A stretch of 64,000 nt of DNA from positions 5,029 through 69,028 of the forward strand of contig CAZEBW010000012.1 in the NCBI GenBank assembly GCA_964510205.1. Reading direction: 5' to 3'. Below are positions 16,681 through 34,076 of this stretch, in pieces. Within the stretch, counting starts at the first letter, position 1. Every line of letters starts with the position of its first letter. Under the pieces are notes generated by a model that was not told where the DNA came from, did not search any database, and saw only the letters and a program-made list of their open reading frames with translations. Source of the stretch: an uncultured Anaerolineae bacterium. GTDB taxonomy: Bacteria; Chloroflexota; Anaerolineae; VGOG01. A program made the translations under genes and the position numbers.

Positions 16681-16693
16681 GCTTCTCTCCTCA

Positions 16694-17059: not shown

Positions 17060-17060
17060 T

Positions 17061-18083
17061 TCACACCTCCTCCAGATTCAACACTCGCAACCGGCCCATC
17101 CCCCGGGTGTTCATTCCTCCCACTCCCAGATGTTCCATCAGTGCCACTCCCTGCTCCACGTGTTGGCGTACCCAGGCGATGTCGTGGGGAATGGTGCGCA
17201 TCCCTTCGGTGGTCTGATCCCTGATTTGGAAGTGCTGCGGGTTGTTATAGACCACATCGAAGTAGAAAACTGTGGCCCTGGGCAAGGCCTCGTAGGTAAA
17301 AAGAGCCTTGTCGTCAGCAGCACCTGTTTCTGGGTCAATGGCTACCGAGGTACGCACTTCCAGATTGTCGTTCACCACCTTGCTGAACAGTTCATCGGAA
17401 AGCAGCACGAGCCGGTCAAAGACCTCGTCAAGCGCGGGATTGCCCGCCGGCAGTTCAGGCAGTGCATCGTGAATACTCCCATTCTCCAGATCATCCCCTG
17501 TCTGCAGCAGCAACCACCCCAGGTTCAGCCGGGTTAGCTGCTGGTTGGAGGCAGGGTGCAACGAAGGTGCTAGGGATACTTGGCCCGTCGACACTTGAGG
17601 CGGGTGCGCCATTCCCGCCCGGCCCAGGGTGCCAGGAGACGTGACCCAGACCGGCCCAACCATGGAGTGCACCGGAAAGAACAGCACCCGGGCATCAAAG
17701 AACTGAGCCATGCCCTGCAGGCTTTGCTGCGTGCGACCGTTGGAAAAGCCGAAGGACACACAGACCGGACAATCCGGGTGGCAGCAGTGCTCCTCGCCGA
17801 AGTCACCACCCTTGCCAGCGCAACTGACTGTCCTTATTTCGGGAAGGTCATTCGGCCCCCGCTCTACCTCCCGTCGGGTCTGATAGCGCCCGGTTCGCAT
17901 GGCCGTATAGGTCCGGGCTACTCCGGAGAGACTGCTGCCGGGGATCTTAGGCAGGTTGTCGCCCGGCTCGCGGATGATAGACAGATCCACCCGGCCCAGC
18001 CGGTACCCCCCGGTGCCCACGTGAATTGGATCCAGTGCCAAGGCATAGTACCGCTGGCTGTGAAAGATGTTTCCATTGCTCAT
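17061..18083 (-). CDS. cmr4: Cmr4 (Cas7 backbone RAMP)
   Basis: LDPIHVGTGG...IPGSSLSGVAR and C-terminal G-rich GVGGMNTRGMGRLRV; ATG overlaps the cas10 stop (ATGA). Confidence 0.85.
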   Translation of the reverse strand: MSNGNIFHSQRYYALALDPIHVGTGGYRLGRVDLSIIREPGDNLPKIPGSSLSGVARTYTAMRTGRYQTRREVERGPNDLPEIRTVSCAGKGGDFGEEHCCHPDCPVCVSFGFSNGRTQQSLQGMAQFFDARVLFFPVHSMVGPVWVTSPGTLGRAGMAHPPQVSTGQVSLAPSLHPASNQQLTRLNLGWLLLQTGDDLENGSIHDALPELPAGNPALDEVFDRLVLLSDELFSKVVNDNLEVRTSVAIDPETGAADDKALFTYEALPRATVFYFDVVYNNPQHFQIRDQTTEGMRTIPHDIAWVRQHVEQGVALMEHLGVGGMNTRGMGRLRVLNLEEV

Positions 18084-21061
18084 TGCTCTGCTCCTTTCTC
18101 TTTCAGGATTTGCATGTGCAATTCTAGACAATCAAAGAACAGGCCATCCAGCATGGCCTGGCGGAGCCCCCTGTAGGCGGGGCTCTCTGGTGTGTAGACA
18201 GAAAACTCCTTGCCCAGAACCTGGGTGACCAGTTTCTCATACGTTTGCCATTCATTACCCGTTCGTTCCTTCTCAGCCAGGCCCCATTCCTCGAAGCGGG
18301 TGGCCAGCAAGTCACGGATTCCGTGCAGCTTGGTAGTGGTCATGCCGGTCGACCAGCACCACTGCCAGATCTGCTCCATCCGGCGTGAGTCTTCCAGTAG
18401 GTAGGGGCGGGGACTGTGGCGTGGGCCGAAGAGCGGATGGGGGCGCCGGCCGGTCGCCTCGTCCAGACGTATGTCGAAGCGGCGGGCGGATGTATCCAGG
18501 AAGATGTACTCAAAGCGGGATGGATGGACCTGGATCTGCTCACGGGGAGATACGGAACTCAAAGAGCCCAGGTACCATTGATCGCTGATTTCTTCATCGC
18601 CCATTTTCAGGGCAACAAGCCATTCCACGCCGTTCTGGAAGACGATGCGGCGTTGATCACCATCGTCCATCACCTCTTGGACCGGCCAAGTTTGGCGTTC
18701 ATTCGGGAAGGCCAGCATCCGCCGTCCGGCATCCAGGACCGCATAGAGAGGGATGTGCCGGTCGAAGAAAACCAGCCCTAGGTGAATAGGCAACCGATCT
18801 CGCACCCGACCCATCTCTTCTTCATACCGACCGCGGATTCTACCGACTGCTGCCAGCGCCTGTGCCCCTGGCACTAACGCCATGAAGAGGAAAGGTTCCG
18901 TAAGCAGAGAGATGTAGGGCTTATAGGGTGTAGGGTCTGGCTCCGCCCCTGTGATGCGAAAATCACCGGCTTTGACACTGGCCCGACCATAGCCGGATGG
19001 TTCGTAGAGTGTCACCGGCCCTCGCAGCTTCCTGCCCCATTCGTCCGAGGATCCCCCCAAGGACTTCAACCTAGTGGCTGTGATCAGCTTGAGCCTGTCT
19101 GAATTCCATACTAAGGGCACGTCTCCGAAGGAATACCGAGCCTCGTAGACGTGAAATTTGCCGGGCAGGGCTGGTGGTTCCGGAGTCAATTCTAGCCGTC
19201 TTTCTTCTTCCCACAGCACCTGGTTGAGAATCTGAGTCTCTGCTTCTTGCCAGAAACGATGTGTGGTTTCCCATGTGCGGCGCAGGCGGGCAAAAGACGG
19301 GTTCTTGGGATGACCAGGGGCCGCCAGCAGGGAGCGGATGTAGCTCCCATCCAACCAGTTCTCCAGACCGAAGCGACCCACGACCAAAGCTACGCGGCCA
19401 TGTTCGTCCGCCACTTCGTCTATCCAGATTGTGCGACTCAAGAGGCCATCTTTGTTCCGAGCCCAATCTTGAGAACGACGACCACGCCGGGCCAGACACA
19501 CGCCGCACAGTTGGCGTTTTTGAGCCTTATCGGGGTCTCTGGCAAAGTTAGGCAGATCCGCTTCTACGTATCCCTGTGGCCGCACCCCGCAGATCGAGCA
19601 GACTTCGGCCCCCACCCGCTGCCGCCAACTCTGCCGGATGAGGCCGGGTTCGGCCCAGAGTGGGGTTCGTTGGGCCAGGAGCCCGCCTAGTTCGGTTGCC
19701 TGGCGGGAGGGTTTAGATAGTGGTATTGGCTGCAGTATCACCTCTCCCCGCAGGCGTTTGCGGAAGGCTTGCTGGATTGTGTCTTTGACTAGGGTGACGA
19801 TCACCAGCCCTTCATTGTCGCCGTCCAGGGCTGGCACCAGGAAGGCACTGCCATTCTCGTCGCGATAGATCTCGTTCCCCAGAGGGGAGATCACCTCTAT
19901 GGCCCGCTTCACATCGTTCAGAGCGTCCTCCAGGACAGCCTTGCGCCCCAACAGATCAGTGACGTGGTAAGCCTGTTCCAGATAGCCCAGGCCGTCGTAG
20001 CCCACTCGTAACAGCCGCCATTGGATGCTGTTAACCTCTGGGAATGTGTAGCTTGGGTTTCGCGTCTGTTCCAGCAGAATCTTGGCCAGGGCAGCCTTGT
20101 ACAGGCTGGCCACAGAGAAGGAGTGGTCCCACAAGGTCACGTCATTGGCGGCACGGCGGGTTTCGCCCAGGGCCCGGCGGAAGGCAACCTCGGTGAGTTT
20201 TCGTAACCCCTCGACCCACCCGTCTGCTGTTGGCCAGCCGTCGTAGAGGATCTCCTGCCAGAACTCAGGGGGCAACGTATGTCCGGCAGGCAATTTAGCT
20301 CGTTCTGTCCCGACACGCTGTAGGACGAGGGCCAGGTTATTGGCGTAGTTATGGCGCACTTGTTTCAGTTCGTCGGTTTTGATACGCAAGCTATCCGGCT
20401 CGTGGCCGAAGGCGGTGGCGATGCAGGTGTCGCCGAGATGTTGTTTAAGGCCACCTTTGTCAGCCCCGGCCTTGTCTACGGCCGAATCCGCACCATCACA
20501 ACCCTCAAATCCTGCCGTCAGAAGTTGCGTCGCTGGTCCGTGTACAGCGAGTAGCGGGGAATGATGTGCCTCGAGGAAATCACCTATGGTTCGTTTCTCT
20601 TCGGATGGCCAATGAAAGGTCAGGTGCAAGTCATCCAGCAATTGAAGAAGGCTGTCCGGCAGAAAGTCGTCGGGAACAAGAGCCTCTTCCCTGATAACCC
20701 GTCTACCCTCGGCATCGCTAATCTTGAGCCACAATTCATCCATTTGTTGCCAGATATGCCCCTTCGCGTGCCCCCGTTCTTCCCGGCTAACACCCTCATC
20801 TGGTAAACTCTTGGCCCAGTCTTGGACTTTCCGCCTGAATGCGGCTTCTACCTCCTTGCTGGTTACAGGATCGAGCGAATAGTAGCTTCTCATCGCTCGC
20901 CTCAGCACAAGGTGGTGCTCAAAGCCTAACTGTTTAGACAACTCAGCTTGAACAGCCACAAACTCCGCGCTCAACTTCCCCAGGTCGTGGATCAGCGCCC
21001 CAATCTCGGCCAGCAGGATCAGGGCGCGGTGCTGCTCCAAAGTGGCTAGTAGGTTACTCAT
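18080..21061 (-). CDS. cas10: Cas10/Cmr2 with N-terminal HD domain
   Basis: 993 aa; HD motif LIHDLGK; treble-clef CSICG...CGVCLARRG between the palm domains; the palm-2 region aligns but appears to lack GGDD (SLLTEPFLFMALVPGAQAL). Confidence 0.85.
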   Translation of the reverse strand: MSNLLATLEQHRALILLAEIGALIHDLGKLSAEFVAVQAELSKQLGFEHHLVLRRAMRSYYSLDPVTSKEVEAAFRRKVQDWAKSLPDEGVSREERGHAKGHIWQQMDELWLKISDAEGRRVIREEALVPDDFLPDSLLQLLDDLHLTFHWPSEEKRTIGDFLEAHHSPLLAVHGPATQLLTAGFEGCDGADSAVDKAGADKGGLKQHLGDTCIATAFGHEPDSLRIKTDELKQVRHNYANNLALVLQRVGTERAKLPAGHTLPPEFWQEILYDGWPTADGWVEGLRKLTEVAFRRALGETRRAANDVTLWDHSFSVASLYKAALAKILLEQTRNPSYTFPEVNSIQWRLLRVGYDGLGYLEQAYHVTDLLGRKAVLEDALNDVKRAIEVISPLGNEIYRDENGSAFLVPALDGDNEGLVIVTLVKDTIQQAFRKRLRGEVILQPIPLSKPSRQATELGGLLAQRTPLWAEPGLIRQSWRQRVGAEVCSICGVRPQGYVEADLPNFARDPDKAQKRQLCGVCLARRGRRSQDWARNKDGLLSRTIWIDEVADEHGRVALVVGRFGLENWLDGSYIRSLLAAPGHPKNPSFARLRRTWETTHRFWQEAETQILNQVLWEEERRLELTPEPPALPGKFHVYEARYSFGDVPLVWNSDRLKLITATRLKSLGGSSDEWGRKLRGPVTLYEPSGYGRASVKAGDFRITGAEPDPTPYKPYISLLTEPFLFMALVPGAQALAAVGRIRGRYEEEMGRVRDRLPIHLGLVFFDRHIPLYAVLDAGRRMLAFPNERQTWPVQEVMDDGDQRRIVFQNGVEWLVALKMGDEEISDQWYLGSLSSVSPREQIQVHPSRFEYIFLDTSARRFDIRLDEATGRRPHPLFGPRHSPRPYLLEDSRRMEQIWQWCWSTGMTTTKLHGIRDLLATRFEEWGLAEKERTGNEWQTYEKLVTQVLGKEFSVYTPESPAYRGLRQAMLDGLFFDCLELHMQILKEKGAEQ

Positions 21062-22343
21062 GGAGTACCTCCTCTCGCAACGCGGCAGCTAATCTATCGG
21101 CTACCCTGTCCAGGTCCGCCAGATCCACACGATCCGTCTCTTCCTGCAAGGGTACCATCTCCGGCTCCGACACGACAGCCGTCTCAGTTGGAGGTGGCGG
21201 TTCGCGCCAAGTGTGAGCTTCTCTGTCCCAATCCGGGTGTCGCTTACGCAGTCTCTTGTATTGGCTGGTGCGGCTTCTCCCCCAGTCGCTCTCGTCTAGC
21301 TCAGCGTTTGTCCAACGGGGAAAACCTTCCAACTGCATTCGCTGGACGAAATCAGCGATGTCTGCTTCTAGACTGTCATCCGAGTCCTTTGGTGCCGCTT
21401 CCTCTTGAGTCTCCTCGGGTGGCATCCGGCTCACTAAGGCATGAACACCCCAATAGAAGTCACGCACGTATGGCTTAGCCAGGCCGAAGCCGCTGGTCCG
21501 CTTGGCCGAAAAGCCCACGGTCCGAAACATGGCCTCCAAGCCTCCTGCTATTTGCTGCAGGTGATGACCTACCTCGGCTTTGTAGTCTGTCCAGGGTAAC
21601 CCCGCTCTATCAAAGGGTACGTACAGCAAGGAAAAGACGCCTCGTGCGCCAGCCGGCACGCATTCCAGGCTAAAGGGGTCCCGCCCGCTCCCACTCTCTC
21701 GATCATGTGGGTTGAGCATCTCCAACTCCAAGGCATCGAAGTGGGTGGGATAGAACCGTAAGCGTCCGGCGCGGAAATAGCCATCGGGCACAGTTCCTTC
21801 TGGACGTGGTGGCCCAAACAGCAAACAGAAGTCGTCATTCTCTTGGTCGCCATTTTGCCAGCGCATAGCTGCCCGCAGATTTCCTTTCCACCCGCTGCCT
21901 CCGAGCATCGGCACCTTGAAAGCCCACTCCTTGCGCAAGGGGTTGTCGTGAGGATAAAATGGTGCATCGTCCTTGCTGATGAAAGGCTCTTGTAGTGTGA
22001 ATCGGAATTGCAGAGCGAATGATCCCATTGGCAATGTCCCCAGCACACCGGCATCCAAGCGCGGCCGCAGCAGTCCCAGACAACGCAGACGTCTCTGCTC
22101 AGAGGCGATCAAGTCGCCAGTGTAAGGTGTAGGACCTTGCGTTCGATGAACTATTTCCCTGTAGTGTCTACGTTCTTTAGCCCAATCAGAATCCGGAAGT
22201 GAAGTGAGGGCCTGAATCTGGGACAGTAGCCTCAGTTGCCCATAGCGATCCCGGACTTCGCTGAAGGCGTCTTCTCGTCCTATCAGGGCATCAGCATCTC
22301 TCTCTCCCCTGATCACAAATGTAGCGTGCCAATCGTAGCTCAT
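21054..22343 (-). CDS. type III RAMP, Cmr6-like (Cas7 family), with C-terminal extension
   Basis: KVPMLGGSGWKGNLRAAMR (G-rich loop-type motif) and FGLAKP; start MSYDW at 22343 with AGGAGG RBS. Confidence 0.55.
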   Translation of the reverse strand: MSYDWHATFVIRGERDADALIGREDAFSEVRDRYGQLRLLSQIQALTSLPDSDWAKERRHYREIVHRTQGPTPYTGDLIASEQRRLRCLGLLRPRLDAGVLGTLPMGSFALQFRFTLQEPFISKDDAPFYPHDNPLRKEWAFKVPMLGGSGWKGNLRAAMRWQNGDQENDDFCLLFGPPRPEGTVPDGYFRAGRLRFYPTHFDALELEMLNPHDRESGSGRDPFSLECVPAGARGVFSLLYVPFDRAGLPWTDYKAEVGHHLQQIAGGLEAMFRTVGFSAKRTSGFGLAKPYVRDFYWGVHALVSRMPPEETQEEAAPKDSDDSLEADIADFVQRMQLEGFPRWTNAELDESDWGRSRTSQYKRLRKRHPDWDREAHTWREPPPPTETAVVSEPEMVPLQEETDRVDLADLDRVADRLAAALREEVLHE

Positions 22344-22354
22344 ATCTCCTCCTT

Positions 22355-23497
22355 TCACACTAGCAGGCTAGTCAAGAACGTCCCTACGTTTCCTATGCAG
22401 GATACCGTATCGCGGGATGAGTTGAACTCACGCCAGACAATGGAAGTCAAGTCCACCAATGGTGGAGCGCCGAAAACATCTCGCCAGAAAGCCGAGCTAT
22501 GCAACAACATGTGCAGATCGTTCAGGAATGCATCTCGATCGAAGTCCCGTCTATGTCGCGGCAGCCAGCCCCATACCCGGAAAGGCCACTGCCCGTCATC
22601 TGGATAAGCGCCCGAGATGTTTATTTTGGCTTTGCGACGTTGCCGGCCAATGTGCCCCCAAATGTGCCGTTGATTTCCCCAAGTGGCTGCAAAGGCATTG
22701 CTCCCGTAGCGAAGTTGGTTCTTCACCGCAGGTGCAATTGAAACAGATCCAGGGCTCCCTCCCCCCCATCGCTCCAGAGTGGTAGCATGAGCACCCAAAA
22801 GAGGACGCCTATCTGAATTTGTTCGCGTCCACCACTGGTCGGCAGCATCGGCCACCAGCCGGAAGCGGGCAAAGAAGAAATCGGTCAGGGACGGGAGCGG
22901 CCCCCTATACAATGTACCAGTCGAGTAGTGGGTCAGGAACTTAGCTAAGTCTACAGTGACCGGTTGATCATCCTTTTCGGCCTTGATCCTCACTACGCCG
23001 TAACCGTGCTGGGTTCGAGCTCCTATGCCTCCCCAGGTTGCGGCCAGTTGCATGGTTACCAGCACTCTGTTGGCTACATCATCTTGATCACCGCGTAGCA
23101 CGATCAATCGCCCGTTGACACCCGTGTCCTCTGTGGCGAGCCGACCGGCTCCATAGAACCAACCAGTTCTGCGGCCTGGGGGTTTGAATCTGCACCAATC
23201 TTGCTTATCCCGTTGGGGATAGGCGAGTTGCCCGGTATCCAGTTGCAGGCGAAACTTCCGCCCCCAGCCGGTGCAACCGAATAGATCGCAGGCCACACAA
23301 TGCTCCCGATCTGCACATTGGTTTCCTCCTGGCACCGTCGGGTCACATGCATCCTCCCCCAGCCCCCGCACAATGGCCTCGTACCACCACCGCAGGCTGC
23401 CGATGATGCCCGTCTCGTGCACGCGGTCGCAGGTGCCGTCCACCCCGCCCGTCCACAGCGGGGTCAATGTATGCAGCTTGATCTCCATAGACCTCAC
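22355..23497 (-). CDS. cmr1: Cmr1-like RAMP
   Basis: LTPLWTGG...GSLRWWYEA (Cmr1 WW signature) and CVACDLFGC zinc motif; GTG start. Confidence 0.7.
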   Translation of the reverse strand: MRSMEIKLHTLTPLWTGGVDGTCDRVHETGIIGSLRWWYEAIVRGLGEDACDPTVPGGNQCADREHCVACDLFGCTGWGRKFRLQLDTGQLAYPQRDKQDWCRFKPPGRRTGWFYGAGRLATEDTGVNGRLIVLRGDQDDVANRVLVTMQLAATWGGIGARTQHGYGVVRIKAEKDDQPVTVDLAKFLTHYSTGTLYRGPLPSLTDFFFARFRLVADAADQWWTRTNSDRRPLLGAHATTLERWGGGSPGSVSIAPAVKNQLRYGSNAFAATWGNQRHIWGHIGRQRRKAKINISGAYPDDGQWPFRVWGWLPRHRRDFDRDAFLNDLHMLLHSSAFWRDVFGAPPLVDLTSIVWREFNSSRDTVSCIGNVGTFLTSLLV

Positions 23498-23949: not shown

Positions 23950-24336
23950 CTATCCCTTAGTGAGGTTGAAACCTGCCTTGAACCAATGACGCCTCTCCCG
24001 CTCCAGACGGTTGCCGAAGAGGTGAGATAGATCAATGGGCTTGTTTCCCACAAACATCCTCGGCCCTCCGGCCTCTTCCAGGCTGGCTCGCACCGGGAAG
24101 ACGATGAACGGCCTCTGGCGGCCCATGTAGTCGTTGCGCATCGCCAGCAGATTTCGCATCACCTTCGCCGTCTCGAGCGTATCTCGAGCTTCGTCCAGCA
24201 CCGCGTCCAGGCCATGCACGCGCAGCGATTGGGGCAGCGGTTCTCTGCGCTTCACGCGGCGCAGAAACTCGATCAGCCCCATCGTCTCCTGGCACCGAAA
24301 CTCGTCTTTGTCCTGTTCGATCAGGTTGTAGCTCAT
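23950..24336 (-). CDS. hypothetical protein
   Basis: 128-aa ORF, co-oriented within the island; no motif recognised. Confidence 0.35.
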   Translation of the reverse strand: MSYNLIEQDKDEFRCQETMGLIEFLRRVKRREPLPQSLRVHGLDAVLDEARDTLETAKVMRNLLAMRNDYMGRQRPFIVFPVRASLEEAGGPRMFVGNKPIDLSHLFGNRLERERRHWFKAGFNLTKG

Positions 24337-24420: not shown

Positions 24421-25146
24421 TTACATTACATTCCGGGACAACTCTGATCCTGTTGGACAGAATTCAAGCAGGGGACACTCACTACATCGCGGATTTCTGG
24501 GCGAACAATAGTTCCTACCAAGAAGAACCATTCCAACATGCAAATCTCGTCTCAGATACTCGGGAATCTTCTCTTGGAGCTCGTCGGCTTGACGCTCCGT
24601 GAGATAGATGTCGCTAGGCGTCCATCCGAGTCTATGTGCGACTCTACGGCAGTGGACGTCTACGGGAAAGACGGCGCGATTGAGCGCATACATCAACACA
24701 CACCTCGCAGTCTTAATACTGACACCTGGCAGGGAAGTTAGAAACTTCTCCGCCTCCTCTATCTCCATCTGTTTGAGGGGTGCTAAAGTAACCCGTCCGT
24801 GTTTCTCTTTAAGCTCCGAAGCGATCTTCGTGATGGCATGCGCTTTTTTGTTGTGTAAGCCCCCCTGTTCAATAGTCTTTGCTACGTATTCTGGGCGGGC
24901 CTCCGCGATACTGTTCGCCGTCTTGAACTCGCGCCGCAGCGAGCGATAGGTTTCCTGGTAAACGTCGGGGGGGGTACGGGAAGAAAGGATGATGTAGAGC
25001 AACTCATTGAACGGGTTCTTCTTGTTGCCCAACGTCGGTCGCCCGAACTCTTGCACGAGGGCTTCTGTTATCTCCTCTACGTGAGGGTGGAAACAATTAC
25101 TGTCATTGTTCACGCTTCTGTCCTCAACGGCGAACAGGGTCTTCAT
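24421..25146 (-). CDS. endonuclease III family HhH-GPD DNA glycosylase (Nth/Mig-like)
   Basis: HhH LPGVSIKTARCVL with catalytic Lys, VDVHCRRV Asp motif, and 4Fe-4S loop C-x6-C-x2-C-x5-C (CSPRNPRCSECPLLEFC). Confidence 0.8.
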   Translation of the reverse strand: MKTLFAVEDRSVNNDSNCFHPHVEEITEALVQEFGRPTLGNKKNPFNELLYIILSSRTPPDVYQETYRSLRREFKTANSIAEARPEYVAKTIEQGGLHNKKAHAITKIASELKEKHGRVTLAPLKQMEIEEAEKFLTSLPGVSIKTARCVLMYALNRAVFPVDVHCRRVAHRLGWTPSDIYLTERQADELQEKIPEYLRRDLHVGMVLLGRNYCSPRNPRCSECPLLEFCPTGSELSRNVM

Positions 25147-25152
25147 GCGAAA

Positions 25153-25824
25153 CTATGTGGATGACCACTTCATCCAGGTGTCGAGCCTGTCCAAGTGAGA
25201 CTTGAGGTCGAATATCTGGTGCTCGGTGTAAAAGGTCCAACAATACCTTTTCCCGTATAGGCTCAGGAGCAGGCAAAGCACGAGGGTAACTGGATCGTCG
25301 GCAGTCAGCGGGAAGGACGGTTGTGTCTCAGGAAGCCAACTCGGACATTCGACAGGTGGGCCGTAGCCCAAGCTCCGAATGAGCTGTGCGTGATAGAAAT
25401 CGTGGCGACCTACCTCTTTCCTCTCGTCCCCGTGAGGGCTTTCCAGGCGAAATCCAACACCACAGAGGTTTCCCTCGTTCCCATCACTGGAGATCAACAT
25501 GACTTTCATTGTCATCTTCGTTTTCGTCTCACCCAGGTTGCACCGCAGCGACAGGACCGGAACGAACTCGGGGTTCTTTTCCAACCGTGGCAGGTACAAG
25601 ACCTTGCTTCGCTCGGAGAAATCTACCTCGACTGCTTCGGAATCCGGAAACAGATTGGCCAACTCTGTCTCCCCAATGGGGGGCAGACTATTAATGAGCG
25701 TGCTCCAGGCTTTCAAAGCCCCGGCGGACGGTTTCCACCTCGGCTGTTGACGAATCCAGGCATTTTCCTGTATTCGACATAACGCTTCGAATAGTTGGCG
25801 CAGCGTACCGACAGTTTTCCGCAT
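25153..25824 (-). CDS. hypothetical protein
   Basis: 223-aa ORF; no motif recognised. Confidence 0.4.
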   Translation of the reverse strand: MRKTVGTLRQLFEALCRIQENAWIRQQPRWKPSAGALKAWSTLINSLPPIGETELANLFPDSEAVEVDFSERSKVLYLPRLEKNPEFVPVLSLRCNLGETKTKMTMKVMLISSDGNEGNLCGVGFRLESPHGDERKEVGRHDFYHAQLIRSLGYGPPVECPSWLPETQPSFPLTADDPVTLVLCLLLSLYGKRYCWTFYTEHQIFDLKSHLDRLDTWMKWSST

Positions 25825-25845
25825 AGAGCAGCCACCAAGAAATAT

Positions 25846-27036
25846 CTACAGGGAAAATCGCACTTTGGGGCGACAATCGACGCCTTTAAAGTCTTTTACG
25901 AACCTACGGGCAAACGGCGACTCTACATCTGCGACGAATTCCCTGTACCCTTCCTCGTAGAACCGAGAGGCATCTTCACAGAACACCCAACCGGGTCTTT
26001 CCATCTTCCAAGGTTCTCTCACTTCCAGGACGTCTTGACATTCTCGCAATTCGTCCCAGAACCAGACCGGCCGTGACAACCAATGATCTTTCTTCAACCG
26101 AAACGGCTCAATGAGGTCTGTCCTCAATCCGAGATCCTCGTGACTGACCAGCCGTGCTGTCCTGTTCCAGGTCTCAATGTCCATAGCATCGCCAGCCATT
26201 AGGCTTGGGTACCTCGAGACCAAATGCGGCGCATCCACTAGGATGTCCTGCTCGGGAAGCACGAGTCGCTCCAACCACTTCGAGATCCGCGCCGCACCGA
26301 CTCTAGCCAAGACGTCTTCACTCACGCCGACTGCGTTCGGTACATCCTTTCGTTCTAACCCGTTGCCAGATTCCGTGACGAACTGTCGGAACGTCGTCTC
26401 CGAAGGCTTAGCTCCCAAGAACTCACCGATGGAGCGTGGGAGCATATCGAACATCTCGGAGGTAAGACCAACAACCTGGCAGATGGGCATATCCGCGGTC
26501 AAGCTTTCCTTGACGTCTTCGACTTTCTTATCGAAATCACGAAGGTATTCGGGCAAGATCGGCCAATGCCACGGCCGGAAACTTGCTTCCGTAGCTTTCG
26601 TAACTCTCCAAAGACCGGGATTGCCCAGTTGTTCTCCTCCTACGTACAAGTCCGTGAACGGTTGCAGCTCTCCCCGTAGAGTGAGATCGAAAGCGTTGTC
26701 GCCGTATCGATATCCTACGATCAGACCGCAACTCGAGAAACAACGAGCGAGGTAAGCGACGACGTCACCGTTCGAGAAAGCGATAGCTTCGAACAGGTCG
26801 TAATCCACGACTAATATGGATGCATCGTCCACAGAGATCCGTTCGCCATCCTCCCAAGTACCGTCTTTCCGAAACGCATGCCGCCTATCTTGTAGGATTT
26901 TCATCGAGTCTATCAACTCTTGGTTTTCAGGGGTCTCGATTTCGAAGGTATCCCTCACGACGGTCAAACTCTCGAGGAATTCTCGGACCCTACCCCTGAA
27001 ACCCGGCTCGTCATCGTATATCAGGATCTTCCTCAT
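25846..27036 (-). CDS. receiver (CheY-like)-like N-terminal domain fused to an about 300-aa domain of unknown function
   Basis: MRKILIYDDEP... with acidic pair and candidate phospho-Asp (ILVVDYDL); start ATG abuts the stop of the upstream kinase gene. Confidence 0.45.
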   Translation of the reverse strand: MRKILIYDDEPGFRGRVREFLESLTVVRDTFEIETPENQELIDSMKILQDRRHAFRKDGTWEDGERISVDDASILVVDYDLFEAIAFSNGDVVAYLARCFSSCGLIVGYRYGDNAFDLTLRGELQPFTDLYVGGEQLGNPGLWRVTKATEASFRPWHWPILPEYLRDFDKKVEDVKESLTADMPICQVVGLTSEMFDMLPRSIGEFLGAKPSETTFRQFVTESGNGLERKDVPNAVGVSEDVLARVGAARISKWLERLVLPEQDILVDAPHLVSRYPSLMAGDAMDIETWNRTARLVSHEDLGLRTDLIEPFRLKKDHWLSRPVWFWDELRECQDVLEVREPWKMERPGWVFCEDASRFYEEGYREFVADVESPFARRFVKDFKGVDCRPKVRFSL

Positions 27037-29192
27037 TTGGTTTCCCTCCAACTGAGCAAAAATGCGGTACTGAATCCCTCGTCCGGTTCGACGAAGCTGA
27101 CCCTGCAACCGATCCTCTCGGCCAACAAACGCACGATCGTCAGCCCAAGCCCTGTACCTCCGTAACCGAGAGCCCGCCTTTCCCGCGATATAGCCACTCC
27201 CCTCTCGAAAGGCTCGAAGAGTCTGTCCACATCTCGGAGATCGACTCCCAGTCCAGTGTCTTGTACGAGGATCTCACGGGACTTTCCCTTAGCACGGGAA
27301 CTCACTTGCAGTATCCGTTCCTCCGAATGCATCATGGCGTTGAAGGCATTGGTGAACACATTCTGGAAGAGCGCACTCCATTCGGCGAGTGAGGCTTCAG
27401 GTAATCGAAGATCCTCGTCGACTTTGCTCGTATCGATTTCAACACCCCTCGCGAGGAATGAAGTCTGTCTCTCGACCTCCTCAACCACTTCGGCAACACG
27501 AAACCGACGCTTCGTCTGAACGTTCTCGGCGTCCGCCAGGTAGTCGAAGAGTGCGTTGGTCGCTCTCGCCCTCTCTAACCACGAGGATAGATCCTCTCTC
27601 AACGAATCGAAGGATCGGCGAAGGCTGGCATCACTGGTTCGAACCTTTGCGATTCTTTCAATGATGCTCTCGATAGTAGAAAACTGCTTCCTCAACTCGT
27701 GTTGATATGCCAACGCAGAGATACCGGCCGTCGCCAGGGGACCCAGCATCCCCATCTGCCTGAGGGCCACTTCTTGACTGGCCGTCGCCGCAGTCGTGGC
27801 ATCTCGGATTCTCTCGTGAAGATCTCGATAGACGTCGTCGGGAATCCGTGGTTCGTAGTGTTCCAAGACTTGTTCGACGCGCTCGAACTTCAGAGACGTC
27901 GGTTCGACAGGAGCCTCCTTTAGTTTACGCTCGAACTGCCGGCGGGCTTCTTCGAAGGCGTACAAATCAAAGGCATATCGAACCATCGCTACGAGATCCC
28001 GAAACGCAGTGGTTTCCTCCAGGCGGTCTCGAGTGATCATAATGCGGAGGTTACGTTCTTGAGACGTATTGACGTTCACGACTCCAAAGATACGTCCCAG
28101 AGTCGGTAGGTACCTCAATCTTTGGGTTTCAGCATATTGGGCCTGGAGTTCCTTGGGCAAGAGTTCCGATGCGAACTTCCGATGAGCGTGGTCGAACTCA
28201 ATTCGCAACCAGTCGTTCTCCGGCGAACCGTACCAAGGTAGACGGAAGCCGCTGTCGTAGACGTGGACGCCTCCGTGCTTCCAGAAGTACTCTCGCGCCT
28301 CTCCGACTTTGATACCGTGAGGTTGTCGGTACTGCAACTTGAAGATCCTGATCTCGAAATTACCTTCGTTGAGGTTCTTCTTTTCGTCGAAGTGCCCGTC
28401 GTTGTGAGGAAAGTCGGCGACGTCGTAGGTATGAGTCTGGGGCGGCTCACCGGCGAATTCGAGCGAGAGAGAAACGCGTTCGCCTTCGTTCTCTCCGACG
28501 AGTCTAGCCGTCCAGATCTTCATGATCGCCCGAATTTGCTCTTCGAACACCTCCTCGAACTCACGTTGGGGCGACTGAAAATTGATTTCGAAACGCTCCT
28601 CGGGAGTGAGCGACGAAGAGCGGAAGGGGGGTTGCAGCCACCACAGCTCCCCTGCGAGCCCTTCGATCTCGTCCTCGCTCCACTCGTGCTTCAATCCACT
28701 CAAGACGATGGACGTTCCTTGCTCGAAGGGTGGAGGCGACGACTTCTCGGTGTAGAACACACTCGCGTCTACGAGGTCTCCCGCCTGCACGGCTTCTTCC
28801 CAATCGACGCTCGCTTCGAGCCACTTACCGTCGTGCTCCTTCGGCACGGTGGCTATCCTCAGGTTTCTAGCGAGGAACTGAACCGCGAGCCGCCCGATAC
28901 CCTTCGAACCGGTCATCGGTCTCTCCAGGTACTTCGATACCCGCTTCTCAGTTTTGTGAATCGTACCGATCCGCATCCAGAAGTCTCTGAATTCGCCGAA
29001 GGTCATGCCGTGGCCGTCGTCACGTACTTCGATGCGATCTTCCTCGGGAGCGAATTCGATCGTCGCTTCGAACGCATCCGCATCGTAGCTGTTTTTGACT
29101 AGCTCCGCCAGGGCAATGTGGGGTTTGCCCACGAGCCTCTCGCCGAGTTCCCTCAGCAGAGCGGCGTCTACCGTGAATTTCAAGTGTGGCAT
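27033..29192 (-). CDS. double-GHKL protein: N-terminal MORC/Hsp90-type ATPase plus C-terminal histidine kinase (HisKA-like H-box plus HATPase_c)
   Basis: N-terminus: ELVKNSYDADA (N box), DDGHGM, GSKGIGRLA; C-terminus: AYQHELRKQF (H-box), NVFTNAFNA, DTGLGV, FEPFERG, GYGGTGLGLTIV. Confidence 0.6.
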   Translation of the reverse strand: MPHLKFTVDAALLRELGERLVGKPHIALAELVKNSYDADAFEATIEFAPEEDRIEVRDDGHGMTFGEFRDFWMRIGTIHKTEKRVSKYLERPMTGSKGIGRLAVQFLARNLRIATVPKEHDGKWLEASVDWEEAVQAGDLVDASVFYTEKSSPPPFEQGTSIVLSGLKHEWSEDEIEGLAGELWWLQPPFRSSSLTPEERFEINFQSPQREFEEVFEEQIRAIMKIWTARLVGENEGERVSLSLEFAGEPPQTHTYDVADFPHNDGHFDEKKNLNEGNFEIRIFKLQYRQPHGIKVGEAREYFWKHGGVHVYDSGFRLPWYGSPENDWLRIEFDHAHRKFASELLPKELQAQYAETQRLRYLPTLGRIFGVVNVNTSQERNLRIMITRDRLEETTAFRDLVAMVRYAFDLYAFEEARRQFERKLKEAPVEPTSLKFERVEQVLEHYEPRIPDDVYRDLHERIRDATTAATASQEVALRQMGMLGPLATAGISALAYQHELRKQFSTIESIIERIAKVRTSDASLRRSFDSLREDLSSWLERARATNALFDYLADAENVQTKRRFRVAEVVEEVERQTSFLARGVEIDTSKVDEDLRLPEASLAEWSALFQNVFTNAFNAMMHSEERILQVSSRAKGKSREILVQDTGLGVDLRDVDRLFEPFERGVAISRERRALGYGGTGLGLTIVRLLAERIGCRVSFVEPDEGFSTAFLLSWRETK

Positions 29193-29210
29193 GGCTGAAG
29201 ATGCTCCATA

Positions 29211-30266
29211 TCAGTCGACGTGTGTTTCGAGGTGACGTTTGATACTCCTGGCGATGACCCTCCCCAACTCGACGGGGACCGCGTTCCCCACGAGTCTCCC
29301 AACGACACTGAAGTAAACGGGGTCTCCGGGGGCGACAAACTGGTAGTCTTCTGGAAAGGTCTGAAGCAGGGCGGCTTCTCGCAGCGATATCGCGCGGTCT
29401 TGCTCGGGATGTCCGAACCTACCGTTCCCGAAGCCATGACACTGAGCAGTGAGCGTAGGAGCCGGTTCGTCCCACGCCATCCTCCCGTAGACGCTGGCGT
29501 AACCCTGCCCGCTCTCTTTCTTGTGACATTCGGCGACGAGTTCTTCGGGCCAGTCTCTCCAGGTACCTCCAGGCACCGACGCCCTTATCCTACGCAAGTT
29601 CAACCCCGACAGACTGCTAGCCTTGTGGAGCGGGTCGCTCTCGCTGGTCTGCCCGGCCTCAAGCGGTTCGAGGTGACCGATGGCATCCCGGACGGTTCCG
29701 TATTCGTCGGGAGAGTGTGTCTCGTCCACGATCTCGACTTCACCGTACCTGGAAGCGAAGAGTACCAACCTGGTCCGGTGCTGGGGGATTCCGTAGTCTG
29801 GGCAATACACCTCCGGATACTCTGTGACGTGGTATCCCTTCTCCTTCAATCGGTCGACGAAGGCGCGGTAGACCTCTCCGTCCCTGAAGGTGGCCAGGTC
29901 GGGGACGTTCTCCATTGAGGCGACATCGGGTTCCACTTCACAGATCAGATCGGCGAACTTGGGGACTAGTCTCCACTTCTCGTCTTTGTCTTCCTTCTTC
30001 TTCGTGTAAGGTGAATAGGGTTGACAAGGCGCACATCCGACCAGAATCTTGACGTGTCCCTCCGGATAAAGCGCCACAATCTCTTCGGTGGTCATGTCTT
30101 CGACTCTCTCGTTTATGAACCGTGCGCCGTCGTTGTTTGCCTCGTACGGGTACTCGCAGGCTTCGTCGACGTCGATTCCTGCCACGACGTCGAACCCTTC
30201 CAAGATGAAACCGTGGGTCAACGCCCCAGCGCCACAGAACAAATCTATGACTGAACAATTCTCCAT
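29211..30266 (-). CDS. DNA (cytosine-5)-methyltransferase
   Basis: motif I DLFCGAGAL, motif IV GCAPCQPYS, motif VI ENV, C-terminal QTFPEDYQF. Confidence 0.9.
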   Translation of the reverse strand: MENCSVIDLFCGAGALTHGFILEGFDVVAGIDVDEACEYPYEANNDGARFINERVEDMTTEEIVALYPEGHVKILVGCAPCQPYSPYTKKKEDKDEKWRLVPKFADLICEVEPDVASMENVPDLATFRDGEVYRAFVDRLKEKGYHVTEYPEVYCPDYGIPQHRTRLVLFASRYGEVEIVDETHSPDEYGTVRDAIGHLEPLEAGQTSESDPLHKASSLSGLNLRRIRASVPGGTWRDWPEELVAECHKKESGQGYASVYGRMAWDEPAPTLTAQCHGFGNGRFGHPEQDRAISLREAALLQTFPEDYQFVAPGDPVYFSVVGRLVGNAVPVELGRVIARSIKRHLETHVD

Positions 30267-30355
30267 CTGTTAGGCTACCCCTACTCCAGTTTTCTTTGGC
30301 ATTCCGAATAAACGACTTACTTTGACTACAAGTATAACCCGCAGCGGCTTAGAAG

Positions 30356-33076
30356 TCAAGACCAATCCAGTGACGCTCTATGCTGCATCCTCTTCAGATA
30401 ATCGGCGATCTCTTGATACCCCTCGTTACGCTTGATTTTGGCCAACTCCTCCAGGGTGAAGATGATACCCCGGCGGGCGAAGGGGGCTGCCTCAGCCAGG
30501 AGATCCCTGTGCTCCCGCACGTAGATCATATAATGCGCACCGTCAATGGCCAACTCCGGATCGGTGGGGCTGATGTGGTCTCGCCGCGCCGCCGGCAGAG
30601 TCACCCAAAGCTTGCCCCCATCGGATCGAAGCAGGTCTCGGTCGGTGAAGTCCTCCACGTCGGCACCACGGCCACGCAGCAGCTTGTTCAGCGCGTCGTA
30701 GGTGATGGAGTCGCGGTCGGCCAGAAACAGCAGGTAGAGCGCGGTCAGCGTGTCGGTCTGGCTGACCAGGGTCTGGAAGCGCTCCTCAATGAGCTGTTCG
30801 GCGACGATGGCGCTGGTGCGCTGAACCGCCTCTTTCACCTCCACCATCTCTCCCTCTTCCATCACGTTGGGGTAGTGTTTGGAGTAGAGCTCCAGGCACT
30901 TGGCCTGGGCCACCACGCCCATGTCCGGCTCGCTGAGGTAGCGGCCATCGTGGCGGCGATAGTACTCCACGATGGCCGCCGCCCGGTCGTGGATCTGCTG
31001 AGCCAGGCGGTACCAACTGATGCGCTCCCCCTCGCCGTCCCGCCGCCGGGCGACGAGGATGGTGTCGTAGGAGATGTTCTTCTTGTCGTAGATGTGGGTG
31101 CTGGAGGACATCTCAGAGTGGATGGGCCAGGCGGCAGTGACGTAGAAACCCGCGTCCAGCAGCGCTTTCAGCACCGCGCTCCAGGCTTCGTCCTGTTTGT
31201 GATGATAGGTGAAGGCCATCAGCCCATCCCGCCTGAGCACGCGATAGCATTCGCGGAAGATATCGGTCAGCATTCGCAGGAAGTCTTCTTCATCTTTGCC
31301 CTGGGCGTCGTTCTTGACCGCCTCCTCGGCCTTGGGCGTCAGCGCGGCGCGGAAGTGGGGATAGCGGTCCTTGAGCGCCAGCCGCAGCCAGACGTAGAAG
31401 AAATCGGAGAGCTCCGAGTACATGACGTTATCGTAGTAGGGCGGATCGGTGAGCACCAAGTCTACGCAGTTATTGCGCAGCGGCAGAAAGTCGGAGGAGC
31501 GGCAAAGGAGCAGGGCGTTGCCCTGCTGGCCTAAATTCTCAAACTTCTCAACTAATGTTCCCTGAATCGGTTTCCGATTCGGTGTCTCTTGAATACTATC
31601 ATTAGCGTCTATATACTTTTCGAAGGGCTTGACTAGAAACTGCTGCCCCACTCTGGTCTTTTCGAACTCTGAAACAAAGCTGCCGGTACCATACTCAGTG
31701 CCCCAGAGATTGTTTTCTACGGGCCTACTCGCCGGATGATAGGCATGTCCTTTGAAGATGTTGTGGATCTTATTGTAGCTGAAATTGTACACGTTAAACG
31801 TCGAGTTGTACCGTAAGGTATCTGAAAGAGTGAGCAGGAACACTTCTTGCATACCTTGATCTTTGATCTGCCAAATCTCGCGCAGTAGTCTTCCCAAACA
31901 CAGCAACTGCCGAGCGTTGAACATGTCGCGGAAGTTGTGGTAGCCCCAATTGGGCAGACGCGGCGTGGTCTCTTTTCCCTCTGGAATCTCCTGATCCGGC
32001 AAGGGCAGGGTGTCGCCGATCTCGGCCAGTTCTCGCTCTGCTGCGTGGTAGAGCGCTCGGTCCTCCTCGTCGGCGGCCTTGTAGCCCTTCAAGTCGCAGT
32101 GGGGACAATAGTACTCCACGCCGTAGAGCCGCTCCGGCGGCTTGCCCAACTGGGCGATGGCGCCCACTACTTTGTACTTCTGCCGGCAGTCGGGCCGGGG
32201 GCAAGTGTAGTACTGGCCGCTGGCGTTGCCCTCGGTGGCCTTGAAGGCGTGCCCACAGTGGGGGCAGCGGTGCTCCTCGCGGTAATTCCGCGCCTCGAAC
32301 ATCCCCTCGCACAGCGGGCAGAGCAGGTGGTAATATTCACCGTGATCGAACTCCCAGCCGCACTCGGGACACTCCGGGTCTTCCTCGGTGGGCGCGAAGT
32401 CGGTCCCGCACTCGGCGCACAAGACATGGGGATGGTGCTCCACCTTTGCCGAGCGCGACGAGGCCACGCGGTAGTCCTTGAACAACGGCACGGGGTGGCC
32501 GCAGTTGGTGCAATCCAGCTCCTTGACCCAGAAATAGTACATGGCGTCGGCCTCGCGCCCGCAGAGCGGGCAGGTGGTCTTGTAGTACTGGAGGATCTGC
32601 GGCGCGATCGTCTCCTCCAGGTGCTCGAAGGCGGCGTCCAGTGCGTCCAGATCCACCGGCTCGATCTCTTTTTTGACCACAAACCAGGCCACGGGATTGA
32701 GATCGCAGCCGATGACGTTCGCCCCCAGCCGCAGCGACTCCACGATGCTGGTGCCTCCGCCCATCATCGGGTCCAGCACCACCTTGCCCCTCCCCACCTG
32801 AGCATCCTTCAAATAGAGGTCCCAGATGCGCTCCTCCTCGCTCTTCTCGAAGGTGAGCAGGTCGCCGCCCACCTCAGCCTCGGCTCGTGCCAGCGTCTCC
32901 TCGTCGGTGAGGGCGTAGAGGGCGATGGTGCGGAACACGCTTCCCAGCCGCCGCGCCCACCACTTGTGCATGGTGTAGACCGGGCGGTAGTAGCGCTTGG
33001 CGTGGGCCTCTCGCTCGGCGATGCGGTTCACCTCGCTGATGGGGAACGTGCGCTCGATGGGTTTTTGGTTGGGCAT
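30356..33076 (-). CDS. DUF1156-like DNA methyltransferase with a multi-zinc-ribbon insert
   Basis: N-terminal ISEVNRIAEREAH...MHKWWARR, motif I DPMMGGGTS, motif IV LVLTDPPYY, four CxxC...CxxC pairs; ATG MPNQKP with GGGGGAA RBS. Confidence 0.75.
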   Translation of the reverse strand: MPNQKPIERTFPISEVNRIAEREAHAKRYYRPVYTMHKWWARRLGSVFRTIALYALTDEETLARAEAEVGGDLLTFEKSEEERIWDLYLKDAQVGRGKVVLDPMMGGGTSIVESLRLGANVIGCDLNPVAWFVVKKEIEPVDLDALDAAFEHLEETIAPQILQYYKTTCPLCGREADAMYYFWVKELDCTNCGHPVPLFKDYRVASSRSAKVEHHPHVLCAECGTDFAPTEEDPECPECGWEFDHGEYYHLLCPLCEGMFEARNYREEHRCPHCGHAFKATEGNASGQYYTCPRPDCRQKYKVVGAIAQLGKPPERLYGVEYYCPHCDLKGYKAADEEDRALYHAAERELAEIGDTLPLPDQEIPEGKETTPRLPNWGYHNFRDMFNARQLLCLGRLLREIWQIKDQGMQEVFLLTLSDTLRYNSTFNVYNFSYNKIHNIFKGHAYHPASRPVENNLWGTEYGTGSFVSEFEKTRVGQQFLVKPFEKYIDANDSIQETPNRKPIQGTLVEKFENLGQQGNALLLCRSSDFLPLRNNCVDLVLTDPPYYDNVMYSELSDFFYVWLRLALKDRYPHFRAALTPKAEEAVKNDAQGKDEEDFLRMLTDIFRECYRVLRRDGLMAFTYHHKQDEAWSAVLKALLDAGFYVTAAWPIHSEMSSSTHIYDKKNISYDTILVARRRDGEGERISWYRLAQQIHDRAAAIVEYYRRHDGRYLSEPDMGVVAQAKCLELYSKHYPNVMEEGEMVEVKEAVQRTSAIVAEQLIEERFQTLVSQTDTLTALYLLFLADRDSITYDALNKLLRGRGADVEDFTDRDLLRSDGGKLWVTLPAARRDHISPTDPELAIDGAHYMIYVREHRDLLAEAAPFARRGIIFTLEELAKIKRNEGYQEIADYLKRMQHRASLDWS

Positions 33077-33087
33077 GGAATTCCCCC

Positions 33088-33116
33088 TTGACAAATGTCA
33101 AAAAACTCGCTACAAT
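33088..33116 (+). promoter_or_regulatory. consensus sigma70-like promoter oriented antisense to the flanking genes
   Basis: TTGACA-17-TACAAT on the plus strand; the -35 lies in the palindrome TTGACAAATGTCAA; a 12-bp hairpin (about 33150-33182) lies downstream. Confidence 0.4.
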
Positions 33117-33197
33117 ATCAACGAATGATGGATCGGGAGTACCCGGTCGGGAGAGGAGAGTCTGCGTGACTCTCCTCTTGTCGTTAGAACGCGCCCG

Positions 33198-34076
33198 TTA
33201 AAACGCGACTCGCAGCACCGGCACCAAGCACTCCAACAGGCTGATCCCTCCGTGCAGCATCACCTTATACTTGCCCCGCGTGGCCCAGGCGTAGCGGTTG
33301 CCCACCAGGTAGTACCCGTCATGCTCGACGATGTAGCCAGCTTCGATCAGGTCGTCGGCTCTGGTTTCGACTTCGGCGTAGCGCGAGGCGCCAAAGATAG
33401 CTTGCATGGCTCCTTGCAGACGCTTCGGCAGAGGGAGAAAATGCGTCTCGGTGCTGATGTAGCCGTGATCCGAGGTCACCAGAAACTCGTTCCCGTACAG
33501 CCTCTCGCAGATGTTCAACAGCACCTCCCGAGACTTCTCGTAGATGTCAGTCTGAGTCCGCACCTTCACCCGTCCCTTGATGTCCTCCAGTTCCTTGTCC
33601 GGAATGGGACACCAGATGCCTCTTTCATCGCCATCCAGTGACAGTCGGTTGACGTCTTTGATCTCCACTGTCTTGGCCGCCCAGGGGTAGAAAATGGCCT
33701 CTTTGTAGAAAGCCGTCTCCGAGGGCAGGCAGGAGTAGGCGAAGGAGAGTTCATAATCGGCGTCCAGGTCACGGCAAAGCAGCAGCGCTTCTCGCAGACT
33801 CAGAGCGTCCATCCAGATGATGGGCAACTCTACGGATTCCACGTCCAGATTGCAGCACGAACAGCGGTGGGGCAGGATCTCGCGGTAAAGCTCCGGATAG
33901 GCAGCCCCCAGCACCTTCTCCAAGTACATCGTCCGCCGCTCGCCCTGCTTGAAGTAGGTCTCTCCCAACTCCTCTTGAGGACGCCACAGGTTCTGCAGAT
34001 ACCTCCATATTGCTGGCATCGGATCGTCAGCTTGAATCAATTGACGCAGCAGGTCGGCGAGCTGTAAGCTATCCAC
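33198..34076 (-). CDS. PglZ/alkaline-phosphatase-superfamily domain protein
   Basis: IIWMDALSLREA (metal-binding Asp), SCLPSETAF (nucleophile region), LVTSDHGY (DHG motif). Confidence 0.55.
   Translation of the reverse strand: MDSLQLADLLRQLIQADDPMPAIWRYLQNLWRPQEELGETYFKQGERRTMYLEKVLGAAYPELYREILPHRCSCCNLDVESVELPIIWMDALSLREALLLCRDLDADYELSFAYSCLPSETAFYKEAIFYPWAAKTVEIKDVNRLSLDGDERGIWCPIPDKELEDIKGRVKVRTQTDIYEKSREVLLNICERLYGNEFLVTSDHGYISTETHFLPLPKRLQGAMQAIFGASRYAEVETRADDLIEAGYIVEHDGYYLVGNRYAWATRGKYKVMLHGGISLLECLVPVLRVAF

Follow-up and report, generated by a model that had tools for sequence, protein, structure and literature searches.

A cassette of five genes on the minus strand of a 64,000-nucleotide stretch of DNA (the window) from an uncultured Anaerolineae bacterium encodes a DNA C5-methyltransferase, a protein that joins a MutL/MORC-type GHKL ATPase to a complete histidine-kinase core, a receiver-effector protein, a conserved protein of 223 amino acids (aa) and a DNA glycosylase. 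We propose that this cassette is a restriction-modification (R-M)-like defence system whose restriction arm is gated by a phosphorelay, a reading that we hold with about as much confidence as doubt. What we observe directly, and build the model on, is which domains are present, that their catalytic residues are conserved, how tightly the operon is packed, the synteny and the modularity. An initial annotation of the window had centred on the kinase and receiver genes, as a two-component-like pair with a double-GHKL kinase. That description is borne out by Pfam, by a family profile, by conserved motifs and by a structure model; it drew the module too narrowly, in that the methyltransferase and the HhH-GPD glycosylase belong to the same gene string and to the same conserved cassette.

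All five genes lie on the minus strand and follow one another from the methyltransferase (29211..30266, 351 aa) through the kinase (27033..29192, 719 aa), the receiver-effector gene (25846..27036, 396 aa) and the gene for the 223-aa protein (25153..25824) to the HhH-GPD/endonuclease III-like glycosylase (24421..25146, 241 aa, with an Fe-S cluster loop). Along this string the gaps are 18, -4, 21 and 6 nucleotides (nt), the negative one being an ATGA overlap. A sigma-70-like promoter match on the same strand (30331..30359, TTGACT-17-TATACT, 10/12), found by consensus match alone, sits in the 89-nt gap 5' of the methyltransferase gene. Because of the tight packing and the promoter-like site upstream, the five genes (24421-30266) probably form a single operon, with a candidate start at ~30359. 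The minus-strand coordinates given in the initial annotation are correct, except that the second protein of the pair has 396 aa and not 397. The pair does adjoin the methyltransferase gene, as had been stated, but it does not border the cmr operon on the other side: three open reading frames (ORFs), encoding the 223-aa protein, the HhH-GPD glycosylase and a 128-aa protein, separate it from the cmr genes. The same operon also occurs on contigs of sequencing runs SRR7048220 and SRR7048218.

Judged by its sequence, the kinase is a soluble protein in which a conserved middle region lies between a GHKL ATPase and a complete histidine-kinase core. The Pfam matches are HATPase_c_3 (residues 25-134, E 1.4e-22) and HATPase_c (residues 608-709, E 8e-18). 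The first of these lies in the MutL/MORC-type ATPase domain (residues 1-180; 28653..29192, minus strand), whose Bergerat motifs I-IV (E30/N34, D58xGxG62, G95SKGxGR101 and G159T160) are invariant in A5, a family profile of 27 homologues. When A5 was searched against PDB sequences, residues 21-82 aligned to the N-terminal domains of MutL/PMS2, and residues ~457-715 aligned to solved histidine-kinase cores (FixL fusions, AdeS, CpxA, HK853 and EnvZ) with E values of 1e-12 to 1e-9. The DHp helix and the catalytic ATP-binding domain (residues ~471-719 plus the stop codon; 27033..27782, minus strand) include the N, G1, F and G2 boxes, and the DHp region aligns to the DHp domains of HK853, EnvZ and CpxA. 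The motifs that had been quoted for the kinase proved to be real: across the 27-52 homologues in which residue conservation was judged, the key residues, including H498-E499 and Q503 of the DHp helix and N611, N615, D645xGxG649, F659xPF662 and G676xGGxGLGL of the catalytic domain, are invariant or nearly so.

The best NCBIfam match for the kinase is the BbrUII/HgiDII restriction-enzyme model (NF050001), which covers residues 5-178 only and scores 87.6 bits against a cut-off of 550; PADLOC models of type II restriction endonucleases also match the N-terminal GHKL domain. The enzymes of this model, which are partnered with a C5-methyltransferase, share a homologous N-terminal GHKL domain with the window kinase, but the rest of their chain is the recognition and cleavage part, whereas the rest of the window kinase is a histidine kinase. 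Many NCBIfam models of sensor kinases also align, below cut-off, over residues ~497-712, and no model of a housekeeping two-component family, a placement that would by the initial annotation have refuted its reading, reaches the NCBIfam cut-off. Between the two GHKL domains lies the middle region (residues ~181-470; 27783..28652, minus strand), with conserved blocks at about 281-346 and 361-412. The A5 profile gave no PDB-sequence match over residues ~180-455, and an S5 transducer domain was not detected there by sequence; the region is a candidate clamp or DNA-binding region, perhaps S5-like.

The start codon of the receiver-effector gene, an ATG at 27036, overlaps the stop codon of the kinase gene as ATGA, with GGAGG 8 nt upstream, and the two are predicted to be translationally coupled. 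Searches with the protein gave no match in Pfam, NCBIfam, PADLOC or PDB sequences. From an alignment of 27 sequences, AlphaFold2 produced a good model of the N-terminal part alone; once 150 diverse homologues (A2) were supplied, the full chain came out at a mean pLDDT of 96.2. The N-terminal domain (residues 1-135; 26632..27036, minus strand), which had been called receiver-like, models as a flavodoxin-like CheY fold. Its pocket is kept in the alignment of homologues, with D8-D9 as the acidic pair, D78 where strand 3 ends, and K/R121. Sequence and model together therefore provide the features of a classical two-component pair, namely a DHp histidine followed by an acidic residue, the N, G1, F and G2 boxes, and a receiver fold with a phospho-accepting aspartate and a lysine. 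Because motif residues are conserved in both GHKL domains, in the H-box and in the receiver pocket, ATPase and kinase chemistry both appear to be under selection.

The remainder of this protein is the effector domain (residues ~158-396 plus the stop codon, ~240 aa; 25846..26565, minus strand). Foldseek searches of the model against the PDB returned nothing at E<=1e-3, the weaker matches all being receiver or flavodoxin-like, and neither this structure search nor profile searches of PDB sequences and Pfam found a credible relative of the effector domain; the earlier statement that the region has no recognisable fold is upheld in PDB, Pfam and NCBIfam. Its invariant or near-invariant polar residues are R250, E256, Q263, D268, H271, R275, R322, E354, D355, S357 and R378. 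At E<=1e-3 we found 3100 homologues of the receiver-effector protein, forming at least 700 clusters at 50% identity, and 1264 homologues of the kinase. One variant with a different N-terminus (P0380) was inspected and yielded no functional clue.

The output domain bears on whether the pair is an ordinary regulatory two-component system, in which the kinase would sense an intracellular cue such as nucleotide levels or DNA state and the phosphorylated receiver protein would tune the linked methyltransferase or R-M genes, in expression or in activity, without toxicity. Intact kinase and receiver chemistry would be expected of such a system, and this is the interpretation published for related gene pairs (PMC8011034). 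The effector domain, however, has no match to a helix-turn-helix or to a known response-regulator output, and its invariant D/H/E/D/R residues suggest catalysis more than the reading of DNA. We regard a regulatory role as quite unlikely, also in view of the related cassettes on plasmids described below.

The 223-aa protein belongs to a family in which H141-x3-H145-x-Q147 is invariant and R126, E128, Y190 and G191 are near-invariant. Its 81 database homologues are all stand-alone, unnamed proteins of ~135-270 aa without a Pfam domain, and the family profile found nothing credible in Pfam or PDB sequences. The methyltransferase matches Pfam DNA_methylase (E 2.2e-55) and PADLOC models of the type II MTase and DrmMII-like kinds, and is predicted to be the modification component of the cassette. 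The glycosylase matches Pfam HhH-GPD (E 6e-14) and EndIII_4Fe-2S as well as the PADLOC 'Type II nicking endonuclease' model (E 3e-10), with the NCBIfam glycosylase/Nth models remaining below cut-off. It is a probable V-gene analogue that repairs the T:G mismatches left by 5-methylcytosine deamination.

We fetched 57 genome loci, each encoding a relative of the receiver-effector protein. They come from Chloroflexota, Poribacteria, Acidobacteriota, Bacteroidota, Actinomycetota, Planctomycetota, Verrucomicrobiota, Elusimicrobiota, Pseudomonadota and archaea (Nitrososphaerales and Aenigmatarchaeota). The gene pair, for which the initial annotation had suggested a search in other defence islands, recurs throughout: the kinase gene lies directly 5' of the receiver-effector gene wherever the contig permits. 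The large homologue sets and the constant adjacency show that the pairing did not arise by chance. In ~44 of the 57 loci the gene directly 3' of the receiver-effector gene encodes a homologue of the 223-aa protein, and two plasmid cassettes (L063 and L065) have one too; by this conservation the 223-aa protein is a third component of the module, and one of the two adjacent ORFs that had been raised as possible further components is this gene.

A C5-methyltransferase lies <=~4.5 kb from the module in 45 of the 53 loci with adequate flanks (85%). By identity, the linked enzymes form three groups or more (54-87% identical to the window enzyme, 27-33% identical to it, and L065-like), and they vary in position, being found on either side of the module and on either strand. 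We read this variety as probable module exchange, as expected for R-M cassettes. The glycosylase gene trails the cassette in the closest relatives (L007, L009 and L027), and in L001 a Vsr gene lies 2.5 kb downstream; a controller-like helix-turn-helix gene precedes the methylase in L001, L019 and L063. A controller (C-protein) gene was considered as a general trait of the cassette and dropped, being seen in these three loci only.

Linkage to C5-methylases and repair genes could also mean that the MutL-like GHKL protein and its partners aid very-short-patch-type T:G repair after C5-methylation. MutL stimulates Vsr in E. coli very-short-patch repair. That the best solved relatives of the N-terminal domain are MutL/PMS2, that the C5-methylase linkage is constant and that Vsr or HhH-GPD neighbours are frequent would all fit, and the parallel was pointed out by Iyer et al. 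(PMC2292703); but a Vsr or glycosylase homologue went undetected by BLAST in most loci, and related cassettes use N6-adenine or Eco57I-like methylases, which pose no deamination problem. Since a phosphorelay and HNH or metallo-beta-lactamase partners are also foreign to known repair pathways, and the cassette is set in a defence island, we consider a repair accessory very unlikely.

Several minor features of these loci are worth recording. Poribacteria supply ~22 of the 57. On Poribacteria chromosomes (L004/L011, L012-L014, L024 and L032) the module lies a few kb from type I R-M genes; in L004 it is placed between HsdR/HsdS and HsdM, adjoining an AAA_15/DUF3696 ATPase gene, and an IS3-family element stands directly upstream of it, at the usual place of the C5-methylase. 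In six loci (L017, L045, L053, L057, L059 and L062) the kinase frame, and at times the receiver-effector frame too, is split by frameshifts or, in L017, by an insertion of ~1.3 kb, with a C5-methylase match still nearby. The splits could mean that a toxic restriction arm is decaying, or they could be indel errors of long-read assemblies of metagenome-assembled genomes.

Plasmid relatives were collected by kinase match, and 80 plasmid records matched. The cassettes inspected have their genes in the following order: in Paraburkholderia (L063), a helix-turn-helix gene, an Eco57I-like methylase, the kinase, a 355-aa protein and the 223-aa homologue; in Bacteroides (L064), the kinase, a 209-aa receiver-like protein, an HNH endonuclease and an N6-methylase; in Mycolicibacterium (L065), Dcm and an Eco57I-like methylase, the kinase, and homologues of the receiver-effector and 223-aa proteins; in Klebsiella (L067), an N6-methylase, a split kinase, a 168-aa protein and HNH; in Hymenobacter (L070), Vsr, Dcm, the kinase and a 385-aa protein; in Campylobacter coli (L071), the kinase, a 340-aa response regulator and Dcm; and in Burkholderia (L072), an HsdM-like methylase, the kinase, a 228-aa response regulator and a metallo-beta-lactamase-fold hydrolase. 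A further record (L066) has a receiver-like long protein and no methylase annotated in its 5-kb flanks. The constant part is thus a double-GHKL kinase, a receiver-type protein and, in all but L066, a methylase, with receiver similarity weak or undetected in several of the receiver-type proteins. What varies is the output, which is an HNH nuclease, a metallo-beta-lactamase-fold hydrolase or unassigned domains. The presence of HNH or metallo-beta-lactamase genes at the equivalent position, and the swapping of the methylase among unrelated lineages, are further points against a regulatory system, since a dedicated regulator and its target would not be expected to part in this way.

The two HNH cassettes inspected have a short receiver-like protein and no annotated 223-aa homologue; in the window clade the 223-aa protein accompanies the long effector domain. 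Because of this replacement pattern, we interpret the effector domain and the 223-aa protein as functional counterparts of the nucleases of the sister cassettes, for which they likely stand in. Long receiver-like proteins of other kinds occur in L063, L066, L070 and L071. When the receiver-effector family was compared by hhalign with those of L063 and L066, only a weak receiver alignment was obtained and nothing significant beyond it, so the effector domains of these two and of the window clade are not demonstrably homologous. The L063 kinase is 25.8% identical to the window kinase over 99% of the latter (E 3e-43).

Campylobacter accounts for 41 of the 80 plasmid records that match the kinase. 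L071 is a conjugative C. coli plasmid in which the dcm gene is convergent, and a system of this type may be an experimentally tractable relative in a cultivable pathogen.

In the R-M-like model, host DNA would be marked as self by the methyltransferase, and the glycosylase would repair T:G mismatches from 5-methylcytosine deamination, limiting the mutagenic cost. The kinase dimer would probe DNA with an ATP-driven clamp formed by the GHKL domain and the middle region, and engagement of unmodified (foreign) DNA would lead to autophosphorylation at H498. The phosphoryl group would then move from H498 to D78 of the receiver, freeing the effector domain to attack the invader in partnership with the 223-aa protein or by way of it; a nuclease activity would be the most probable. 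The parts of this scheme that we infer are the nature of the signal, which way the switch works (phosphorylation may activate or restrain the effector) and what chemistry the effector performs.

Three lines of evidence lead us to R-M-like defence in particular. A role of paraMORC ATPases in R-M systems was predicted in 2008 (PMC2292703). VcSduA, a paraMORC3-type Shedu protein in which a PD-(D/E)xK nuclease is found together with a GHKL ATPase and a clamp-like middle domain, has been validated by experiment as an anti-phage system, and its defence requires both ATPase and nuclease activity (PMC12137116). The third is the nuclease-type genes of the sister cassettes. The model is also supported by the gene packing, the conserved residues for ATP binding and phosphotransfer, the conserved synteny with C5-methylases and the defence-island context, and by hallmarks of R-M systems: a BbrUII/HgiDII-like GHKL domain, controller-like helix-turn-helix genes, and Vsr or HhH-GPD 'V' genes. 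The window kinase shares with the paraMORC/MORC proteins, VcSduA included, an N-terminal MutL/MORC-type GHKL ATPase with motifs I-IV intact, links to cytosine methylases, Vsr and nucleases, and the suggested function of an ATP-driven clamp on DNA that controls a nuclease. It differs in that the paraMORC and VcSduA ATPases carry a PD-(D/E)xK nuclease in the same chain or have one as a direct partner, whereas in the window kinase the GHKL domain shares a chain with a histidine-kinase core, and the receiver to which it signals is a protein of its own.

We put forward more tentatively, and with somewhat less confidence than doubt, the stronger claim that the cassette represents a distinct class of restriction or defence system. 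Here a MutL/MORC clamp wired to a histidine kinase would convert recognition of non-self DNA into a His-to-Asp relay acting on a two-family effector; the effector would be swappable with HNH or metallo-beta-lactamase nucleases, and the class would have spread horizontally across bacteria and archaea.

A number of observations weigh against the R-M-like model. The conservation profile of the kinase has no hypervariable segment able to track the specificity of swapped methylases, and neither the effector domain nor the 223-aa protein could be given a nuclease fold or that of any other enzyme. No experimental anti-phage evidence for the family was found in the literature searched, and no relative was found among IMG/VR viral contigs. 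In eight Poribacteria loci the kinase, receiver-effector and 223-aa genes are intact and no C5-methyltransferase is nearby. In four of these, the nearest flanking ORFs scanned are housekeeping genes (oxidoreductase, ABC transporter genes or sulfatase); one of the eight carries an N6/N4 methylase, and in others the module adjoins type I R-M (HsdM) genes, together with an insertion-sequence element in L004. The module is therefore either not obligatorily lethal without a linked methylase or uses an unlinked one. That it persists in some Poribacteria with no apparent harm is also what a non-toxic regulatory pair would lead one to expect.

These same loci are relevant to abortive infection of a Detocs-like or guard type. 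In such a system the kinase would watch for a phage cue or check that the methylation machinery is intact, the effector would kill or arrest the cell, for example by depleting nucleotides or NAD, and the methylase would be a neighbour or a guarded partner rather than a self-marker. A module that can stand without a methylase, a kinase with no obvious specificity-determining region, and an effector whose fold has no match, so that a non-nuclease activity is possible, would all agree with it. Detocs, which Rousset et al. are said to have described in 2023, reportedly combines phosphorelay logic with variable effectors in three genes, namely a sensor kinase, a receiver-only buffer and a receiver fused to a PNP or other known effector. 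To our knowledge, it is the only characterised defence system based on a phosphorelay. The likeness lies in the use in defence of a histidine kinase with a receiver-fused effector, and in modular effectors; the resemblance that the initial annotation drew is an analogy and goes no further. The sensor domain is a different one, the window operon has no second, receiver-only buffer gene and no PNP-type effector, and neither a Detocs model nor any other PADLOC defence model matches the kinase/receiver pair as a system. The window operon is instead tied to DNA methyltransferases, a C5-methylase being tightly packed in the operon and linked in most of the adequately flanked loci, and the HNH partners of the sister cassettes point to DNA as the target. 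On balance we think abortive infection of this kind unlikely.

The suggestion of the initial annotation that the system is undescribed does not hold. Its layout, with a receiver-like gene, an upstream C5-methylase and a downstream Vsr gene, was published in 2021 by Bellieny-Rabelo, Pretorius and Moleleki (Genome Biol Evol, PMC8011034), who started from Pectobacterium and described kinase-like proteins composed of HATPase_c_3, HEF_HK and HATPase_c. In their work HEF_HK (PF19191) is a new DHp domain and Response_reg_2 (PF19192) a divergent receiver domain; over 644 regions, the kinase-like gene was linked in 91.6% to a Response_reg_2 gene without any other known domain (PMC8011034). Around these pairs a C5-methylase typically stands upstream, a Vsr gene is often present downstream, and the neighbourhood includes HNH and other R-M domains. 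The authors, whose work was computational only, suggested an origin from paraMORC ATPases and, as a speculation, a role of the pair in regulating R-M systems (PMC8011034). No functional study of the layout after 2021 was found in the literature searched.

The window cassette shares with this module a soluble protein with HATPase_c_3, a DHp region with its H-E pair and HATPase_c, an adjacent gene for a divergent receiver running into an unannotated region, the link to C5-methylases, nearby Vsr or R-M genes, and a wide, patchy distribution. PF19191 and PF19192 had no match in the window proteins even at E<=10, and neither is present in the precomputed annotations of the top 120 homologues of either protein. 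Among the plasmid relatives scanned, the L063 kinase alone gave an HEF_HK match, at E 0.008 and below the gathering score. The window clade is mainly found in uncultured Chloroflexota, Poribacteria, Acidobacteriota and archaea rather than in Proteobacteria, and it has an effector domain of its own and the conserved third gene for the 223-aa protein, which the HEF_HK paper did not single out. By these comparisons the window cassette is best placed as a divergent clade of the broad HEF_HK/Response_reg_2 family, with a layout that had already been described. What is new here is this clade, with its own effector domain and its conserved 223-aa gene; what was already known is the layout, from computation. 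The 'HATPase/REC' predicted system of DefensePredictor was also considered and could not be tied to the window family from its text.

Phosphorelays are the main signalling device of bacteria, and MORC biology matters for gene silencing in eukaryotes. We know of no R-M system that uses a phosphorelay. An account of how a MutL/MORC-type ATPase gates a kinase would join MORC biology, two-component signalling and the discrimination of self from non-self by methylation. The effector domain and the 223-aa protein, which are confidently folded or conserved and have no known relatives, are candidates for new enzymology. The cassette family is large, the receiver-effector alone making up 700 or more clusters at 50% identity, in many phyla and in both prokaryotic domains, and the analysis corrects the annotation of proteins that public records label 'sensor histidine kinase', 'RpfC' or 'hypothetical protein'.

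PADLOC scans of the window place the cassette in a defence island, as the initial annotation had recognised, with a type III-C CRISPR effector operon downstream and an Hma-like methylase and ATPase, a CARF-type gene and a DRT-like reverse transcriptase upstream. The type III-C operon (14619-23497, minus strand) comprises a Cmr1-like gene (22355-23497), Cmr6 (21054-22358), Cas10c (18080-21061, E 3e-151), Cmr4 (17061-18131), Cmr3 (15775-16716) and an unassigned 389-aa ORF (14619-15788), all on the minus strand. Directly upstream of the cassette is an Hma-like or BREX-like module (30356-36480, minus strand) that encodes a 912-aa DUF1156 N6-methylase (PADLOC HmaB E 7e-44, also PglX-like), a 292-aa short PglZ-like protein with only the PglZ domain's C-terminal end, and an 803-aa HmaC-like protein with a weak N-terminal match to HmaC (an AAA+ ATPase); the truncated PglZ-like gene is unusual. 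More defence genes of the island lie further upstream, namely a gene for a 289-aa protein with a CARF-type match (39246-40115, minus strand) and, adjoining it, one for a 946-aa reverse-transcriptase protein (40758-43598, plus strand; PADLOC DRT 'RTasDnaG-like' E 5e-46, RT_UG29).

Between the cassette and the type III-C operon, the 128-aa ORF (23950-24336, minus strand) begins 84 nt beyond the glycosylase gene. It was the second of the two ORFs that had been suggested as additional components, and we rejected it as part of the cassette, since it was found beside the module in none of the 57 other genome loci. The precomputed annotation of the identical Logan contig assigns it DUF8076 (PF26277), a domain that the local Pfam scan did not report.

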